A stretch of 64,000 nucleotides of DNA from positions 232,246 to 296,245 of the forward strand of contig CAYXWL010000001.1 of assembly GCA_964468795.1 (NCBI GenBank), written 5' to 3'. This stretch comes from an uncultured Candidatus Saccharibacteria bacterium (GTDB lineage: Bacteria > Patescibacteriota > Minisyncoccia > Phycocordibacterales > DATDWN01). This document shows positions 18,705 through 27,220 of this stretch, one piece after another (the first letter of the stretch is position 1; each line of letters begins with the position of its first letter). The translations under genes were made by a program, and so were the position numbers. The notes under the pieces were generated by a model. The model saw only the letters and a list, made by a program, of their open reading frames with translations. It did no database searches and was not told the origin of the DNA.

Positions 18705-18772
18705 CCCATCAAAAGTTTCAAATTATTTTAAAATCTTTGATGGGAGGGCGAACAAATTTCGTTGCTCACCCA
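18705..18772 (-). promoter_or_regulatory. X-type UTR module copy a (CCCAUCAAAAG..CUUUGAUGGGA palindrome + GC hairpin)
   Basis: cccatcaaaag-N22-ctttgatggga-gggcgaacaaatttcgttgctcaccc; upstream of possible 40-aa mini-ORF. Confidence 0.5.
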
Positions 18773-18885
18773 TTGCACTGCGGTCTCGCCCTGCCTTATC
18801 AGCAAACGAAGTGTCTAGCTTCGTTGCTCGCTTAAGTCATTTCTGACATCAGCGAATTCGCGCAGGATCCCCGCTCAAGTTTGTG

Positions 18886-19386
18886 CTAACTCAGTCGACC
18901 CAATAAGGTTTGCCCTGTCGATACCAATCTGGCGTATGACCACCACTGACTGTAATCAGTGAGGATTTCCATACGCCAATGGCTGTCGACTCTGCCGGGA
19001 ATGGGCGGACACAATTCGATGAACGGAGATTGCTGATTGCGCAACTCCTCGTCCCTCGAAACGCGCCTCGCACACACCGGCAAAGTGACACCACTCGCAT
19101 CTTTGACGAATGCGACATTGGCACTGAGCCTCGACGAAAGTTTCCCACTGCATACTCGACCGTCTTTCTTTGGCGCAAGTAAGTTGAGAAAACTGTCGAT
19201 CGAGATAGGGCGATACCTCGTCAGGATCCGCTGCGCGTCGACGTATGTCCCGAGGTCCCAGAGAAGCAAATTGCTCTTCTCTTCGTTCCGGCGCACTTCC
19301 ATATTGCTAAAGTGACGCTCGAAAGTCTCACAAACCTCGAGGACGTTGACACTCACAAGGCGATCCCGAACGATGTAGTTTTCCAT
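18886..19386 (-). CDS. Hypothetical protein (GC-rich element)
   Basis: Start at MENYIVRDRL preceded by AAAGGAGGG SD; 166 aa; no motif recognised. Confidence 0.5.
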   Translation of the reverse strand: MENYIVRDRLVSVNVLEVCETFERHFSNMEVRRNEEKSNLLLWDLGTYVDAQRILTRYRPISIDSFLNLLAPKKDGRVCSGKLSSRLSANVAFVKDASGVTLPVCARRVSRDEELRNQQSPFIELCPPIPGRVDSHWRMEILTDYSQWWSYARLVSTGQTLLGRLS

Positions 19387-19454
19387 GAGCCCTCCTTTGG
19401 GCAAAATACAGACTATTTTTAAAGAACTTTGGAACAATTTTGTTCCTTCAGAAT

Positions 19455-19500
19455 ACTTAACCTAGGTTAAACCCTCTGAAGGAAGTCCGAGGATATATGA
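19455..19500 (-). promoter_or_regulatory. Y-type structured module (CGUCCGAGGAAGUC..GACUUCCUCGGACG alternative hairpins), copy 1
   Basis: ggaagtccgaggatatatgacttcctcggacg; near-identical inverted copy at 26186-26232. Confidence 0.5.
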
Positions 19501-19544
19501 CTTCCTCGGACGATACCGGGCTGACGCGCCGATAGACGTTATTG

Positions 19545-20036
19545 CTAGACTTCTCCCGAGAGATCGTTCGGATCTTCGTGGCCGTCCCACTCGGTGTCGA
19601 CATCTTCTCGCTTCCACTTGAGCCGATGGAGGACGTACTCGATCCTGCCCCTGGATTGTTTGGACAGCTTCCACTTCAACCAGCCGAACTCCTTCTCGAG
19701 CTGAGCAAGATTCTCGATCTGCCAACGCTTCAGGCAAGAAACGAGTCTTGGACTGAAGATGGATTTCGTCGAGATCTCCTCCCGAGGCCGATCTTTCAGC
19801 GAGTCGACGATGGCGTTGAAAGCCATCTCGAACTTCTGTTGCTCTACGGGCGGAGGCGGGAGTGGCTTCGGCGGTTTGCCGGCGTTCTTTCGTGCGGTGC
19901 GAACCTTACGAACTGCCTTGCGGGCAATCTGCATGATTCGCTCCTTCGTGACGGCAAACTCCTGGCCGATGTCGTTGTAGCTCATCCCTTGCGCGAGTAA
20001 GGTCAGGATTCTCTCCTCGCGGGGAGTCGTCCTCAT
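19545..20036 (-). CDS. Sigma-70 region 4-like HTH protein
   Basis: LTPREERILTLLAQGMSYNDIGQEFAVTKERIMQIARKAVRKVR matches sigma r4.2 / LuxR-type HTH; start at MRTTP (ORF-track start is TTG further upstream). Confidence 0.5.
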   Translation of the reverse strand: MRTTPREERILTLLAQGMSYNDIGQEFAVTKERIMQIARKAVRKVRTARKNAGKPPKPLPPPPVEQQKFEMAFNAIVDSLKDRPREEISTKSIFSPRLVSCLKRWQIENLAQLEKEFGWLKWKLSKQSRGRIEYVLHRLKWKREDVDTEWDGHEDPNDLSGEV

Positions 20037-20127
20037 GCGCTCGACTGGTGTGATCTCCGAAATGACAATGCCGAACAAAGTTTTTTTCTGCAATGTTTTT
20101 CTCCAAAGAACAAAGGGAAATTATTTT

Positions 20128-20185
20128 CCCGTCAAAACTCTGAAATAAATTCAAAACTTTGACGGAAGCCGAACCGAAGTTCGGC
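20128..20185 (-). promoter_or_regulatory. X-type UTR module copy f (variant arms CCGUCAAAAC..AACUUUGACGG + hairpin GCCGAAC-cgaa-GUUCGGC)
   Basis: Same architecture with compensatory changes; upstream of 19545..20036. Confidence 0.5.
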
Positions 20186-20423
20186 AAGTGTGATGGTAAA
20201 CTCGGAGTAGTTGTAGCCACTCTTTGCTCTTTAGGTAACTTGCGCCCTTAGCGAATACCCTGATTCCATCGCCAGACAGAATCACGGGAGAGTGGTTAAA
20301 GCTACAACTTCTAACCAACTACTCGCTCAATATGTATCACGGGCCATCACGCTCCACGACACGTCGCAACATTTTTCCTGCTCAAAAAATTCTACGATGT
20401 ACCGTGGAACTTTACAAAGAACT

Positions 20424-20474
20424 TCTGTTTCGTCGTTTCCGACTCATCAGGTGAGACATACATCTCACGACAGG
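20424..20474 (-). ncRNA. Hammerhead ribozyme, type III (copy i)
   Basis: Minus-strand RNA: CUGUC|GUGAGA-UGUAUG-UCUCAC CUGAUGA GUCG-GAAA-CGAC GAA ACAG; all core nts (CUGAUGA, GAAA, GUC) present; stems I/II closed, III open. Confidence 0.8.
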
Positions 20475-20558
20475 TGCCTTGGGTGCTAATCAAGACAAAT
20501 GATTTTTGGCCCTACTGCCCCTTGCGGGTACTCGGACCTTCTGTTGCCAAGCCGGTCA

Positions 20559-25731: not shown

Positions 25732-25782
25732 AATTTGGTCCCGATTTGTTCATTTCAATTTTCAGTGCCCAAAGGAGGGCCC

Positions 25783-26154
25783 ATGATCAACGAACGTGGT
25801 GAGTTTATTCGCGAGACGGCAGCTCCTTCTACCAAGGAAGTCACCACGAAGAATTACATGGTCAACGTGGTCACTTCATCGCTCAAGGATATTCTCAGTG
25901 GACACAACCTGATCAGCGACATGAACCAGGTTATCCTTCTCCAGTTCGGACCTTGCTCGGAAGAGGAAGGTGACGCTCTGGCGGATCGGATCAACGCGTG
26001 GGTTCGTGGGGGTGAAGGTCGTGGTCCTGCTGAGGCATTCCGGATTCTGGGACTGCACCAGAAGACGGGAGATGTGTGGGCGTCTTGCGACCCGATCCCG
26101 ACGGCTGGCATCTCGGAACTTCTCCAAAAGTTCCAGGTGAAAACCACTGTTTGA
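25783..26154 (+). CDS. Hypothetical protein (123 aa)
   Basis: Start MINERGEF preceded by AAAGGAGGGCCC; ORF-track TTG start upstream lies inside the UTR module. Confidence 0.45.
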   Translation: MINERGEFIRETAAPSTKEVTTKNYMVNVVTSSLKDILSGHNLISDMNQVILLQFGPCSEEEGDALADRINAWVRGGEGRGPAEAFRILGLHQKTGDVWASCDPIPTAGISELLQKFQVKTTV

Positions 26155-26185
26155 TCAACATAAAGATCCGTCCATCGGCGCGTCA

Positions 26186-26232
26186 GCCCGATATCGTCCG
26201 AGGAAGTCATATTATCCTCGGACTTCCTTCAG
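26186..26232 (+). promoter_or_regulatory. Y-type structured module, copy 2
   Basis: cgtccgaggaagtcatattatcctcggacttcc then ttcagag + two short hairpins; mirrors 19400-19500 with compensatory stem changes. Confidence 0.5.
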
Positions 26233-26301
26233 AGAGTTCAACTTTGTTTGAAAATTCTGAAGGAACGAATAGTTCGTTCTGGTTCTTTGGGGAGGTACAC
26301 C

Positions 26302-26520
26302 ATGTTCGTCAGCAATACCACGATTTTTCACTGCCCGATGTTCGGGTGCGGTCACGAAAACGAACGTTCGAACCGCACGAAGCCGGAAGACATCGTTTGC
26401 GAAGGATGTCACGCACCTTGGTGGCCGATGGAACTCGGTTTCATTGGAAATGATCCGAAAGAAAACATCGAGTTCGCACGGACTCATGATCGGAAAGGAA
26501 ATCTTCGTGAGCTGGCGTAA
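26302..26520 (+). CDS. Small Cys/His-rich protein (72 aa)
   Basis: Start MFVSNTTIF preceded by GGGGAGGTACACC; CPMFGCGH..CEGCHAPWW. Confidence 0.4.
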   Translation: MFVSNTTIFHCPMFGCGHENERSNRTKPEDIVCEGCHAPWWPMELGFIGNDPKENIEFARTHDRKGNLRELA

Positions 26521-26527
26521 TTCTTCT

Positions 26528-26590
26528 GGGCGAACGTAATTTGTTCGCCCTTCCGTCAAAGTTTTCAAGTCATTGAAAGTTTTGATGGGA
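26528..26590 (+). promoter_or_regulatory. X-type UTR module copy d
   Basis: gggcgaac-gtaattt-gttcgccc ttccgtcaaag ttttcaagtcattgaaag ttttgatggga. Confidence 0.55.
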
Positions 26591-26657
26591 CAAAAATTCC
26601 CAAGGTGACCGTAGCCTGCATATCGCAAAATACGGTAAAGAACCCAAGGAGGTTCAA

Positions 26658-27119
26658 ATGTACACTGTCATCATTCACTGGATCACTGGTCGTGCCTCAA
26701 ACGATCCTGCAACGTACACGATTTTGGAGATGCTTGCAAAGCGTAAAGAGCATGAGCAAGTTTTATTCGAACTCGAGAGCGGGATCGAAGCTGCCGGTGG
26801 CGAGTCGGTTGCATGTAGGTCTTGGATAGCGACTAACAACGAGTGGGTCGGTATCGAAACGATGCAAGAGATCAAAATTCAGGTAGCAAGTCTTGAAACA
26901 GCCTGGTTGATCTTCAGCACCGTAAACCATCTACTCGAGATTTGTGGCAACTACAGCGGGAACATCCGACTCGGAGATAGTTTCCACAAGGCTGAAGATC
27001 TTCTATCGCAAGCTGCAAAGTACGAAAAAATTCTGCGCCAGGTCTTCCGAGAAATCAAACGGAAAGACTACTCGGCGGCAGCAATCCGTCGTACTCTGAA
27101 GCAAGCCCTAGAACACTAA
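26658..27119 (+). CDS. Hypothetical protein (153 aa)
   Basis: AAGGAGGTTCAA SD before ATG. Confidence 0.45.
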   Translation: MYTVIIHWITGRASNDPATYTILEMLAKRKEHEQVLFELESGIEAAGGESVACRSWIATNNEWVGIETMQEIKIQVASLETAWLIFSTVNHLLEICGNYSGNIRLGDSFHKAEDLLSQAAKYEKILRQVFREIKRKDYSAAAIRRTLKQALEH

Positions 27120-27158
27120 ACATTTTCAGTGAATGAAAGGGGTTGATAAGTTCTTTTC

Positions 27159-27220
27159 GGGCAAACTCACGTTTGCCCTCCCATCAAAGTTTTGAAACTA
27201 TTTTGAAAGTTTTGATGGGA
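27159..27220 (+). promoter_or_regulatory. X-type UTR module copy e
   Basis: gggcaaac-tcac-gtttgccc tcccatcaaag ttttgaaactattttgaaag ttttgatggga. Confidence 0.55.

Follow-up and report, generated by a model that had tools for sequence, protein, structure and literature searches.

What are the repeated hairpins that stand in nearly every intergenic gap of a GC-rich island in the genome of an uncultured Candidatus Saccharibacteria bacterium, and at which level do they act? The island (~50% GC, at about 18420-27810) lies within a 64-kb stretch of contig CAYXWL010000001.1, called the window below; coordinates are those of the window unless a related locus is named. An earlier note on this DNA had described seven X-type and two Y-type copies of a repeated 5'-untranslated-region (5'-UTR) module and had argued for a function at the RNA level. 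We find that all nine represent a single cis-acting RNA cassette, ~110 nt long and present in the sense transcript. Its parts follow one another in the order hairpin H1, hairpin H2, hairpin H3, single-stranded GUUCUUU(G/A)A, Shine-Dalgarno (SD) site and start codon. Tentatively, we suggest that the cassette may serve as punctuation in polycistronic RNA.

The palindromes at the centre of the elements were located by an inverted-repeat scan (18703-18746, 20129-20165, 20979-21016, 22389-22460, 25691-25730, 27179-27220, 19443-19484, and 26224-26265) and, for X6 (26551-26590), by a regular expression. With single-sequence folding, these searches placed all seven X and both Y copies where the earlier note had put them; every X copy folded as the GC hairpin and palindrome that it had reported, the first directly followed by a long near-perfect hairpin. 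The arm word CCATCAAAG, with no more than one mismatch, was observed 33 times, compared with 20 +/- 4 in shuffles, and 0 of 100 shuffles reached 33. Judged by the flanking open reading frames (ORFs), all nine copies have the orientation of the genes, as the note had stated, and no random orientation was seen.

The earlier note had also suggested building a covariance model and searching metagenomes with it. The island protein gF has very few homologues (4 clusters), and these gave three short loci whose contigs carry the same cassettes. A metagenome scan with a specific pattern yielded 17 further loci, several of them from 0.1-µm groundwater filtrates (L093, L101, L104, L107, and L108 come from 0.1-µm fractions of Hainich groundwater), and all carry cassettes, in many cases a row of them between short same-strand ORFs. 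ERZ27283008 and SRR6837552 are further samples with such islands. The related loci number 21 (L089-L109), and 46 distinct sense copies remained after removal of duplicates. Two covariance models were used: R1, from a MAFFT alignment (A1) of 39 X-type copies (7 from the window and 32 from related loci), and R2, from alignment A3, which contains non-window sequences only. The main statistics given below rest on A1 and on alignment-free hairpin counts, A2 and A3 being model-fitted alignments. The leave-window-out model R2 recovered all nine window copies, all in sense (51.6-77.5 bits, E 1e-11 to 8e-19); its other matches in the 64 kb were antisense echoes (19.6-35 bits) and one weak palindrome (43564-43595) only. 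With R1 and R2 alike, all nine copies fell within 18657-27257 in gene orientation, and none in the other ~54 kb. Sense matches of R1 scored 45-103 bits and antisense matches 14-37 bits. In control DNA selected for exact arm words, scores did not exceed 32 bits in 597 kb, and a further 673 kb gave no match. A dispersed repeat of the REP, BIME, or MITE kind was rejected, as the nine copies all lie inside 18657-27257 and are all gene-oriented. The copies and their parts are as follows.

22349-22490, minus strand: X4, 80.6 bits (R1) and 77.5 bits (R2, window left out); H1 22487-22461 (GGGUGAGCGAC...GUUUGCCC, 10 bp); H2 22460-22389 (72 nt, the loop holding an extra inserted hairpin); H3 22393-22373 (GGGACGAA UGG UUCGUUCC); motif GUUCUUUGAGGAG at 22371-22359; ATG at 22352.
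20938-21047, minus strand: X3, the most diverged copy, 55.3 bits (R2); H1 21041-21018; H2 21017-20978 (arms UCUCGUCAGAG.../...UGACGAGG, with two compensatory pairs relative to the consensus); H3 20981-20963; motif GUUCUUUAAUA at 20960-20950, an exact match to the boxA consensus discussed below; ATG at 20939.
20089-20197, minus strand: X2, 68.8 bits (R2); H1 20185-20168; H2 20167-20127 (arms UUCCGUCAAAG.../...UUUGACGGGA, an A-U pair replaced by G-C); H3 20130-20115; motif GUUCUUUGGAG at 20111-20101; TTG start at 20093.
19405-19514, minus strand: Y1, same family with a different H1, 61 bits (R1, outside its seed) and 63.6 bits (R2); H1 19511-19485 (GUCCGAGGA...UCCUCGGAC); H2 19484-19443 (UUCCUUCAGAG.../...UCUGAAGGAA); H3 19446-19431; motif GUUCUUUAAAA at 19427-19417, an exact boxA consensus; SD site and ATG at 19386.
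18657-18775, minus strand: X1, 51.6 bits (R2); H1 18771-18746; H2 18745-18704; no GUUCUUU, the GGGAG at the 3' base of H2 being the sole SD-like sequence of a 38-codon ORF (ATG at 18695).
25661-25770, plus strand: X5, 76.5 bits (R2); upstream stop TAG at 25660-25662; H1 25670-25690; H2 25691-25730; H3 25726-25743; variant motif GUUCAUU at 25748-25754; SD site and ATG at 25783.
26194-26304, plus strand: Y2, 63.2 bits (R1, outside its seed) and 64.3 bits (R2); H1 26196-26223; H2 26224-26265; H3 26262-26280 (GGAACGAA UAG UUCGUUCU); motif GUUCUUUGGGGAGG at 26282-26295; ATG at 26302.
26521-26629, plus strand: X6, 65.6 bits (R2); upstream stop TAA at 26518-26520; H1 26528-26550; H2 26551-26590, with a G·U intermediate at the A-U/G-C position; H3 26586-26602; no GUUCUUU, an additional hairpin and an SD site coming next; ATG at 26658.
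27149-27257, plus strand: X7, 75.5 bits (R2); H1 27159-27178; H2 27179-27220; H3 27218-27231; motif GUUCUUUU at 27235-27242; SD site and ATG at 27255.

The division into X and Y families did not hold. R1, built from X copies alone, finds the Y copies at 61-63 bits, and a relative in L094 (3828-3933) joins a Y-type H1 to a canonical X-type H2. The UUCAGAG singled out in the Y copies is present, as the 5' arm of their diverged H2 and not as an element of its own. The alternative Y hairpin GGAAGUC/GACUUCC can likewise be read in the sequence but lies outside the minimum-energy fold; it is kept, with one G-U change, in L094 and not in L100.

Pairing is preserved throughout the cassette by sequences that differ from copy to copy. 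H1 is a GC-rich hairpin of 7-12 uninterrupted bp whose 3' end is flush with H2 (zero linker). A stem of at least 7 bp flush with H2 was found in 44 of the 46 sense modules, compared with 5.4% at random anchors in the same DNA, and the H1 stems comprise at least 12 unrelated sequences (e.g., GGGCGAAC/GUUCGCCC, ACCGGAGC/GCUCCGGU, GGCCGAUC/GAUCGGCC, and the GUCCGAGGA/UCCUCGGAC of Y1). H2 is an 18-bp hairpin with a conserved lower stem, UCCCAUCAAAG/UUUUGAUGGGA, that includes a G·U wobble. In the 39 copies of A1, 96.6% of H2 cells are paired, and both sides have changed at 11 of the 18 pairs (64 cells, counted as cells and not as independent events), which 0 of 500 shuffles reached; registers slid by 1-3 columns gave 42-65% pairing. 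RNAalifold, run on the 32 non-window copies, independently returned the same 18 pairs. Three pairs of the lower stem (C37-G96, A38-U95, and A40-U93) never change, and 35 of 39 copies have G41·U92; the loops and the distal stem vary. G·U pairs in H2 outnumber A·C juxtapositions 108 to 5 (66 to 5 if the fixed wobble is left out), so folding belongs to the sense strand, and the complementary strand would fold much worse. These results bear out the earlier argument from compensatory change to an RNA-level function, as does the maintenance of pairing by many different sequences in H1 and H3.

The strand asymmetry bears directly on the possibility that the element acts as DNA, either as an operator for a dimeric protein (TrmB-like, sigma-r4-like, or Zn-finger, the candidates named in the earlier note) or as attC-like single-stranded recombination hairpins. 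The arms do form an 11-bp inverted repeat, the arrays of the window, L093, and L096 each have a TrmB-like gene beside them, and exchange at or near cassettes is suggested by the variable gene content and by gF, ahead of which the window has a Y cassette, L089 an X cassette, and L091 a hammerhead region. However, the two arms differ consistently (CAAAG versus CAAAA as half-sites) and covary, which equivalent half-sites do not predict, and ~30 bp separate their centres. Promoter-like hexamers are missing from the cassettes: none of the top promoter-like sites (23145-23117, 23281-23309, 25267-25239, and 25256-25284) is at a cassette, and one 10-of-12 site (20961-20989, plus strand) overlaps X3 but runs antisense to the operon of X3. 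Whereas attC hairpins form from the bottom strand, here the better-pairing strand is the coding (top) strand, and orientation is strictly tied to genes and SD sites. No RYYYAAC/GTTRRRY inverse cores were found, nor was a tyrosine recombinase among 18 ORFs scanned against Pfam; the only recombinase found is a large serine recombinase (29426-30757). An integron attC site was rejected: the hairpin ends are UCCCAUC/GAUGGGA, the flanking GTTCTTT has pyrimidines where purines are required, and a second copy, where there is one, is direct, not inverted. When ORFs from L089-L109 and the window island were compared all-versus-all by BLAST, the TrmB-like family alone recurred in three independent islands (window, L093, and L096); the sigma-r4-like and Zn-finger proteins were not common to the related loci. 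We consider a DNA-level element very unlikely, and the double-stranded operator that the earlier note had offered as its alternative is disfavoured by the strand asymmetry, the arm covariation, the missing promoter hexamers, and the absence of shared sigma-r4-like and Zn-finger proteins.

The TrmB-like gene itself (23653-24393, minus strand), a winged-helix gene in an AT-rich stretch that breaks up the GC-rich island, is thus common to loci, but it stands at the promoter end of the cassette array. Its homologues occupy the same relative position in two independent loci (L093, 9504-10265; L096, 6280-7116), and its composition is nearer to that of the host than to that of the island. The TrmB-like protein is more likely the island's transcriptional regulator.

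H3, the conserved GUUCUUU, and three hammerhead ribozymes in the same operon as many of the cassettes had been overlooked in the earlier note. H3 is a short hairpin (stems of 4-9 bp, loops not conserved) whose 5' arm is the GGGA that closes H2, so that it overlaps the last 4-5 nt of the palindrome. Its five shared-register pairs are 90.9% paired, and the first pair beyond the overlap covaries. H2 and H3 are mutually exclusive over the shared GGGA. Full H2 is favoured over a shortened H2 with full H3 by a median of 3.85 kcal/mol, and H3 is therefore expected to form fully only after disruption of H2. In 38 of the 46 copies, a single-stranded GUUC(U/A)UU, usually GUUCUUUGA, follows 6-22 nt past H2, and it usually continues straight into GAGGAG.

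The cassettes are fitted to gene ends as well as to gene starts. With ORFs in the metagenomic loci called by a simple script, the start codon lay 30-38 nt after H2 in 24 of 40 cases with a callable downstream ORF, and a stop codon 26-38 nt before H2, a few bases ahead of H1, in 16 of 37 cases with a callable upstream ORF. The cassettes are located between same-strand ORFs inside polycistronic units. They also stand ahead of non-coding stretches (three cassettes in L093, L094:2139, and X1 of the window), which argues against a purely translational role; between the 38-codon ORF behind X1 and the terminator lie ~270 nt of RNA that is structured and apparently non-coding. The name 5'-UTR module undersells a cassette that occupies the entire intergenic gap, in many relatives begins right behind the stop codon of the upstream gene, and can also stand ahead of non-coding stretches. 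We conclude that the cassette is a structure of the sense strand, be it RNA or the corresponding single strand of DNA, and that its position is linked to the starts and ends of genes.

Two further sequence repeats were seen around these parts. The motif GG(C/U)GAGACC(G/A)CA(G/A)UG recurs just upstream of H1 at X1 (18795-18779) and in L089, L091, and L092. Another short motif, GGACUGCACAC, is repeated where non-coding segments have their 3' ends: in the window at 18461-18450 (minus strand), in L089 at ~1132-1142, and in L091 at ~224-231 and 968-978.

Is the cassette a known RNA? A search of Rfam gave no match to it up to E=10 in 18300-28000, except a chance-level mir-320 match over X1 (16.8 bits, E 9.1), and none up to E=0.01 in 16 related loci; the ribozyme-family matches in these searches were the neighbouring hammerheads only. 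When 185,579 species genomes were scanned for CCCATCAAAG..CTTTGATGGG, 82 loci and no true cassette were found. The 82 were rejected as chance palindromes: BLAST showed no similarity between them and the island, H1 and H3 were missing, and scores reached at most 32 bits; the pattern itself is too strict, since most copies have UUUUGAUGGG. Among IMG/VR viral contigs, two specific patterns gave 0 matches, and a loose one gave at least 120 chance loci, 80 of which (673 kb) were scanned with the model and contained 0 cassettes. As none of the three pattern scans found a true cassette, islands of this kind are not in the IMG/VR collection. We conclude that the cassette is a well-supported structured motif absent from Rfam, with 46 distinct copies and strong covariation.

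Conservation of the H2 lower stem exceeds what pairing needs, with three invariant pairs and a wobble in 35 of 39 copies, and the loops and distal stem vary. This is best explained if a trans-acting RNA-binding protein, of the host or of the island, reads the lower stem and its wobble and controls the translation or stability of each downstream cistron; in one version, exchange between H2 and H3 would switch access to the ribosome-binding site. Its nearest counterparts would be coat-protein operators, RegA-type operators, and Com of phage Mu. Such an RNA operator would also suit the constant distance to the start codon in 24 of 40 copies, the two alternative partners of GGGA, and the placement of the sole SD-like sequence (GGGAG) inside the H2 stem in X1 and its L092 counterpart. 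On the other hand, no candidate protein is common to the loci apart from the TrmB-like winged helix-turn-helix protein, found in three islands and encoded at the promoter end. Several cassettes precede non-coding RNA, where translational control would have no target; no role is given to an H1 flush behind stop codons; and fully Watson-Crick helices without bulges are poor targets for sequence-specific proteins. A post-transcriptional operator has, in our judgement, a small but real chance of being the correct explanation.

To see what else shares the intergenic positions, the transcription units have to be considered. Consensus promoter and terminator scans, together with reading of the sequence, delineate two divergent island operons, each bounded by one promoter-like site and one terminator. 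Their proteins are small and mostly without a family match, and long untranslated stretches are common in both. The leftward operon (4.7 kb) holds X4, X3, X2, Y1, X1, and the three hammerheads; the rightward operon holds X5, Y2, X6, and X7.

23117-23145 (23145-23117), minus strand: promoter-like site of the leftward operon, TTGACA-17-TATACT.
18443-18420, minus strand: terminator of the leftward operon.
25256-25284, plus strand: promoter-like site of the rightward operon, TTGACA-17-TAGGAT.
27777-27806, plus strand: terminator of the rightward operon.
22031-22085, minus strand: hammerhead type III, 41.5 bits, E 1.9e-6, full core CUGAUGAG...CGAAAC, followed by GUUCUUUAAAA (22031-22021).
21314-21368, minus strand: hammerhead type III, 44.4 bits, E 2.9e-7, followed by GUUCUUUU (21311-21304).
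20422-20476, minus strand: hammerhead type III, 42.3 bits, E 1.1e-6, followed by GUUCUUUG (20422-20415).

The three hammerheads have intact cores and score 41-44 bits, just under the Rfam gathering score of 48.5. They occupy other junctions of the leftward operon, in intergenic positions equivalent to those of the cassettes. Downstream of each lie 230-370 nt of apparently non-coding, structured RNA (22031-21660, 21314-21048, and 20422-20198, minus strand), in which no convincing ORF and no Rfam match were found; these stretches may be structured RNAs released by the ribozymes. Two of them share a 5' hairpin, CCACG...CGUGG (21243-21297 and ~20350-20405), followed by GGCCC(A/G)UGAUACAU. Hammerheads are also present in the related loci L091, L096, L106, L102, and L109, L096 and L106 being near-identical. 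In L096 (5323-5461, minus strand), a hammerhead stands exactly at the place of H1, directly 5' of an H2-H3-GUUCUUUGAGGAGG unit, a natural chimera of hammerhead and cassette.

Association with hammerheads is how twister-sister, pistol, and hatchet were discovered, and the neighbourhood and position that the cassette has in common with hammerheads in at least five independent loci raise the question of whether it is itself a new self-cleaving or otherwise catalytic RNA, interchangeable with them. That it matches nothing in Rfam, all known ribozyme classes included, would agree with this idea. However, apart from GUUCUUU, its conserved nucleotides lie in regular Watson-Crick or G·U helices, the loops vary, the H1/H2 junction has zero nucleotides, and there is no obvious conserved unpaired core, which to our knowledge all small ribozymes have. 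We consider a catalytic cassette extremely unlikely. Unlike the hammerheads, the cassette has no hammerhead core and no match to a ribozyme model, and its cleavage, if it is cut, would probably need a protein enzyme. For clustered hammerheads flanking prophage genes, the published interpretation is that they process long transcripts to mRNAs of gene length (Perreault et al., 2011, PMC3088659), and the present ones resemble them in belonging to mobile-element operons of small variable genes, in their intergenic position, and in the proposed cutting of transcripts; in the window operon, hammerheads and cassettes alternate and have GUUCUUU as a common 3' flank. A literature search for hammerheads in the Candidate Phyla Radiation or Patescibacteria found nothing relevant.

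The common flank deserves attention of its own. In the 4.7-kb leftward operon, GUUCUUU occurs 8 times in sense and once in antisense; the sense copies follow each of the three hammerheads and X4, X3, X2, and Y1, and one marks the end of the 5' leader, while X1 has none. At position 8 of the motif, 24 cassettes have G and 7 have A. That leader is ~380 nt long (23125-22743, minus strand) and begins with a long hairpin (arms 23111-23088 and 23048-23025); its GUUCUUU (22782-22776) is just ahead of the first SD site. A literature search for the motif GUUCUUUGA found nothing relevant.

In ribosomal RNA (rrn) operons, the order of signals is boxB-boxA, Nus factors bound to boxA stay tethered to the polymerase via the nascent RNA, and a second boxA follows the RNase III-processed 16S stem in the 16S-23S spacer. 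In the cassette, as in the boxB-boxA of rRNA operons and lambdoid nut sites, a small hairpin is followed immediately on its 3' side by single-stranded GYUCUUU(A/G)A. The cassette differs from them in that the motif stands ahead of nearly every gene, the hairpin loop is not conserved, and position 8 is usually G. The sequence GTTCTTTGAAAACT is in use as a primer in the polymerase chain reaction for mycoplasma detection; we take this primer to lie in the conserved 16S-23S spacer, and its sequence is presumably the boxA of low-GC Gram-positive bacteria. The boxA consensus of gamma-proteobacteria is GYTCTTTAANA (PMC5725501). Exact matches to it, a consensus from a distant phylum, number three in the 64 kb (0.85 expected), all at module ends. 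The boxA of E. coli suhB, which is placed 6 nt from the SD site, represses translation (PMC5725501); in most cassettes GUUCUUU likewise lies close to the SD site. BoxA-bound Nus factors shield untranslated RNAs such as rRNA and CRISPR arrays from Rho (PMC7665894). From this likeness in sequence, GUUCUUU(G/A)A may, speculatively, be regarded as a boxA-like site.

Could the cassette then control transcription without any cleavage? In one form of this proposal, H2 would be an antiterminator opposed to an intrinsic terminator made of H3 and GUUCUUU, giving each gene an attenuator; in the other, H3 and GUUCUUUGA would make a nut-like boxB-boxA that renders the polymerase resistant to termination. 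The mutually exclusive hairpins of an attenuator are present, since H2 and H3 compete for the same GGGA, and the consensus scan flags H3 with GTTCTTT as terminator-like, weakly, in 6 of the 9 window cassettes. The match of the motif to the (gamma-proteobacterial) boxA consensus fits, as does the nut-like GTTCTTTGA plus hairpin at the predicted transcript start of a gene to the right of the island (31661-30850). Long untranslated stretches would, moreover, attract Rho, from which BoxA shields non-coding CRISPR transcripts (PMC7665894). Against this stand the weakness of the H3 stems (4-9 bp), the 1-4 other bases between them and the T-rich run, and the quite different look of the island's three convincing terminators, which have GC-rich stems of 8-13 bp. 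The regional count of terminator-like sites (12) was not above that in shuffles (10.1), and with H2 favoured by a median of 3.85 kcal/mol the supposed terminator would almost never form. H3 loops are not conserved, as boxB loops would be; GUUCUUU also follows the hammerheads and the leader without an H3-type hairpin; and H1 and the conserved sequence of H2 are left unexplained. We regard transcription-level control of this kind as unlikely. A plain intrinsic terminator was rejected, because H1 runs directly into H2 without a U tract and H3 has weak stems and an offset tail.

The reading that we favour, though our confidence in it falls a little short of an even chance, is that the cassette punctuates polycistronic RNA. 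A double-strand-specific endoribonuclease, most likely the host RNase III, would cut H2. H1 would then stay behind as a protective 3' hairpin on the upstream RNA. Loss of the 5' arm of H2 would free GGGA, allowing H3 to form as the 5'-terminal hairpin of the downstream RNA, with the ribosome-binding site just behind it. At other junctions of the leftward operon, the hammerheads would do the equivalent cutting. More speculatively, GUUCUUU(G/A)A might re-load NusB/NusE on the polymerase after the cut has severed the previous tether, the role ascribed to the second boxA of the 16S-23S spacer, and such re-loading might guard long untranslated stretches from premature termination. A fresh boxA past each cleavage site would make mechanistic sense because Nus factors are tethered to the polymerase via the nascent RNA and these operons are rich in untranslated RNA. 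A cut in H2 would account for H1 flush behind the upstream gene as a 3' cap, for an H3 masked until H2 is disrupted and then serving as a 5' cap, for the fixed distance to the ribosome-binding site, for the interchangeability of cassettes and hammerheads, and for cassettes that flank non-coding RNAs.

A close precedent for such punctuation is phage T7, where the upstream mRNA keeps a 3'-terminal hairpin after RNase III has cut. Like the cassettes, the T7 signals are hairpins of about two helical turns that are intergenic and occur several per operon. Five of them are found in the ~7000-nt early polycistronic precursor, and the idealized RNase III substrate has 22 bp, cellular substrates generally having ~20 bp or less (PMC3867540). 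H2, of 18 bp with an H1 of 7-12 bp abutting, lies within this range (~20-22 bp or less), and the cassettes have the intergenic position within polycistronic transcripts expected of such signals. The two differ in that T7 sites have an internal loop and are cut in a single strand, whereas H2 is a near-perfect duplex with a conserved lower stem, a flush H1, and an overlapping H3; there is no sequence similarity between them. Other relatives in arrangement are the PeSL 'mobile regulatory cassettes' of T4-type phages and the start-associated sequences (SAS/ESAS) of cluster K mycobacteriophages. In both, a short regulatory sequence that contains a stem-loop or an inverted repeat recurs in nearly identical form, immediately ahead of many small and variable genes of a mobile genome; a part in expression and in modular gene exchange has been proposed for them. 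PeSLs include an early promoter, which the cassettes lack; SAS/ESAS are defined by sequence near start codons, whereas the cassette has three covarying hairpins; and the cassettes have no sequence relation to either.

Several observations weigh against RNA punctuation of this kind. Cleavage of H2 is deduced from anatomy and analogy alone. RNase III needs no conserved sequence, yet the H2 lower stem (C-G, A-U, A-U, G·U) is nearly invariant across unrelated genes, which fits a sequence-specific binding protein at least as well. If cutting were their only task, the hammerhead and the H2-H3 unit that stand side by side in L096 would be redundant. The covariation cell counts overstate the number of independent events, as the copies of an island are paralogous and may exchange sequence. 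As to the re-loading step, boxA normally occurs once or twice per operon and not ahead of each gene, GUUCUUU abuts the SD site in most copies and could belong to the translation initiation region, and the boxA near the SD site of suhB represses translation.

A more ambitious form of the punctuation idea joins its two halves into a 'cut-and-reload' unit made of a cleavage site (autocatalytic or guided by the G·U-bearing helix), a boxA-type signal, and a ribosome-binding site. Such units would cut a long mixed transcript into capped pieces and would keep the polymerase processive. We regard this as distinctly unlikely; in its strongest version, H1-H2-H3 would be a new ribozyme class interchangeable with hammerheads.

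The surroundings of the island throw some light on its origin. The 64-kb window has a GC content of ~38% and represents a bacterial chromosome segment, with type IV pilus genes, recG, ftsH, secY, a tmRNA, and two tRNAs. This gene content, together with the filter fraction of the related samples, hints at a host like those of the Candidate Phyla Radiation (Patescibacteria). The features that adjoin the island on the right are these.

29426-30757: large serine recombinase, just right of the island.
31661-30850 (region 30850-31830), minus strand: GC-rich gene of ~270 aa with a strong promoter.
33795-33883: tRNA-Ser, right of the recombinase and the GC-rich gene.

Because a serine recombinase, a further GC-rich gene, and a tRNA-Ser adjoin the island on this side, the whole region is probably an integrated element, and the island possibly reaches ~33.8 kb. 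tRNA genes are also found within the cassette-bearing loci L096, L099, and L108. The predicted transcript of the GC-rich gene opens with GTTCTTTGA, after which comes a hairpin (31767-31720), a nut-like arrangement. Between the two operons, a candidate non-coding RNA of ~340 nt (23281-23655, plus strand) is convergent with the TrmB-like gene. Its promoter (TTGACA-17-TATACT, 23281-23309) is close to consensus, its body is rich in GC and highly structured, and it ends in a 13-bp terminator (23616-23649). Its 5' part has GTTCTT and then an SD-like GGAGGG with a 3-codon mini-ORF, and it has no Rfam match. A role for this RNA (23312-23655) as an antisense partner of the cassettes was rejected, the longest complementarity being 0-9 nt and in non-conserved parts only. 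Farther out, a MazF/PemK-type toxin gene (16116-16508) lies 2 kb left of the island, and the tmRNA (43147-43595 region; tag peptide VKNLSKGIASPFGNAFAFSPALA) is followed by the palindrome 43564-43595.

If the cassettes do punctuate RNA, they would show how a mobile island of a poorly studied lineage organises its transcripts: in long RNAs that mix tiny genes with structured non-coding RNAs, ribozymes and a protein-dependent hairpin would take turns as punctuation marks, each with the same short motif after it. The island would be an example from nature of hammerheads and a non-ribozyme element standing in for one another, and would bear on the purpose of hammerheads in bacteria. It would also offer the testable idea that transcript cleavage is coupled to boxA-type antitermination outside rRNA operons, and its compact design of stop codon, hairpin, hairpin, and ribosome-binding site might serve as an insulator between genes in synthetic operons.

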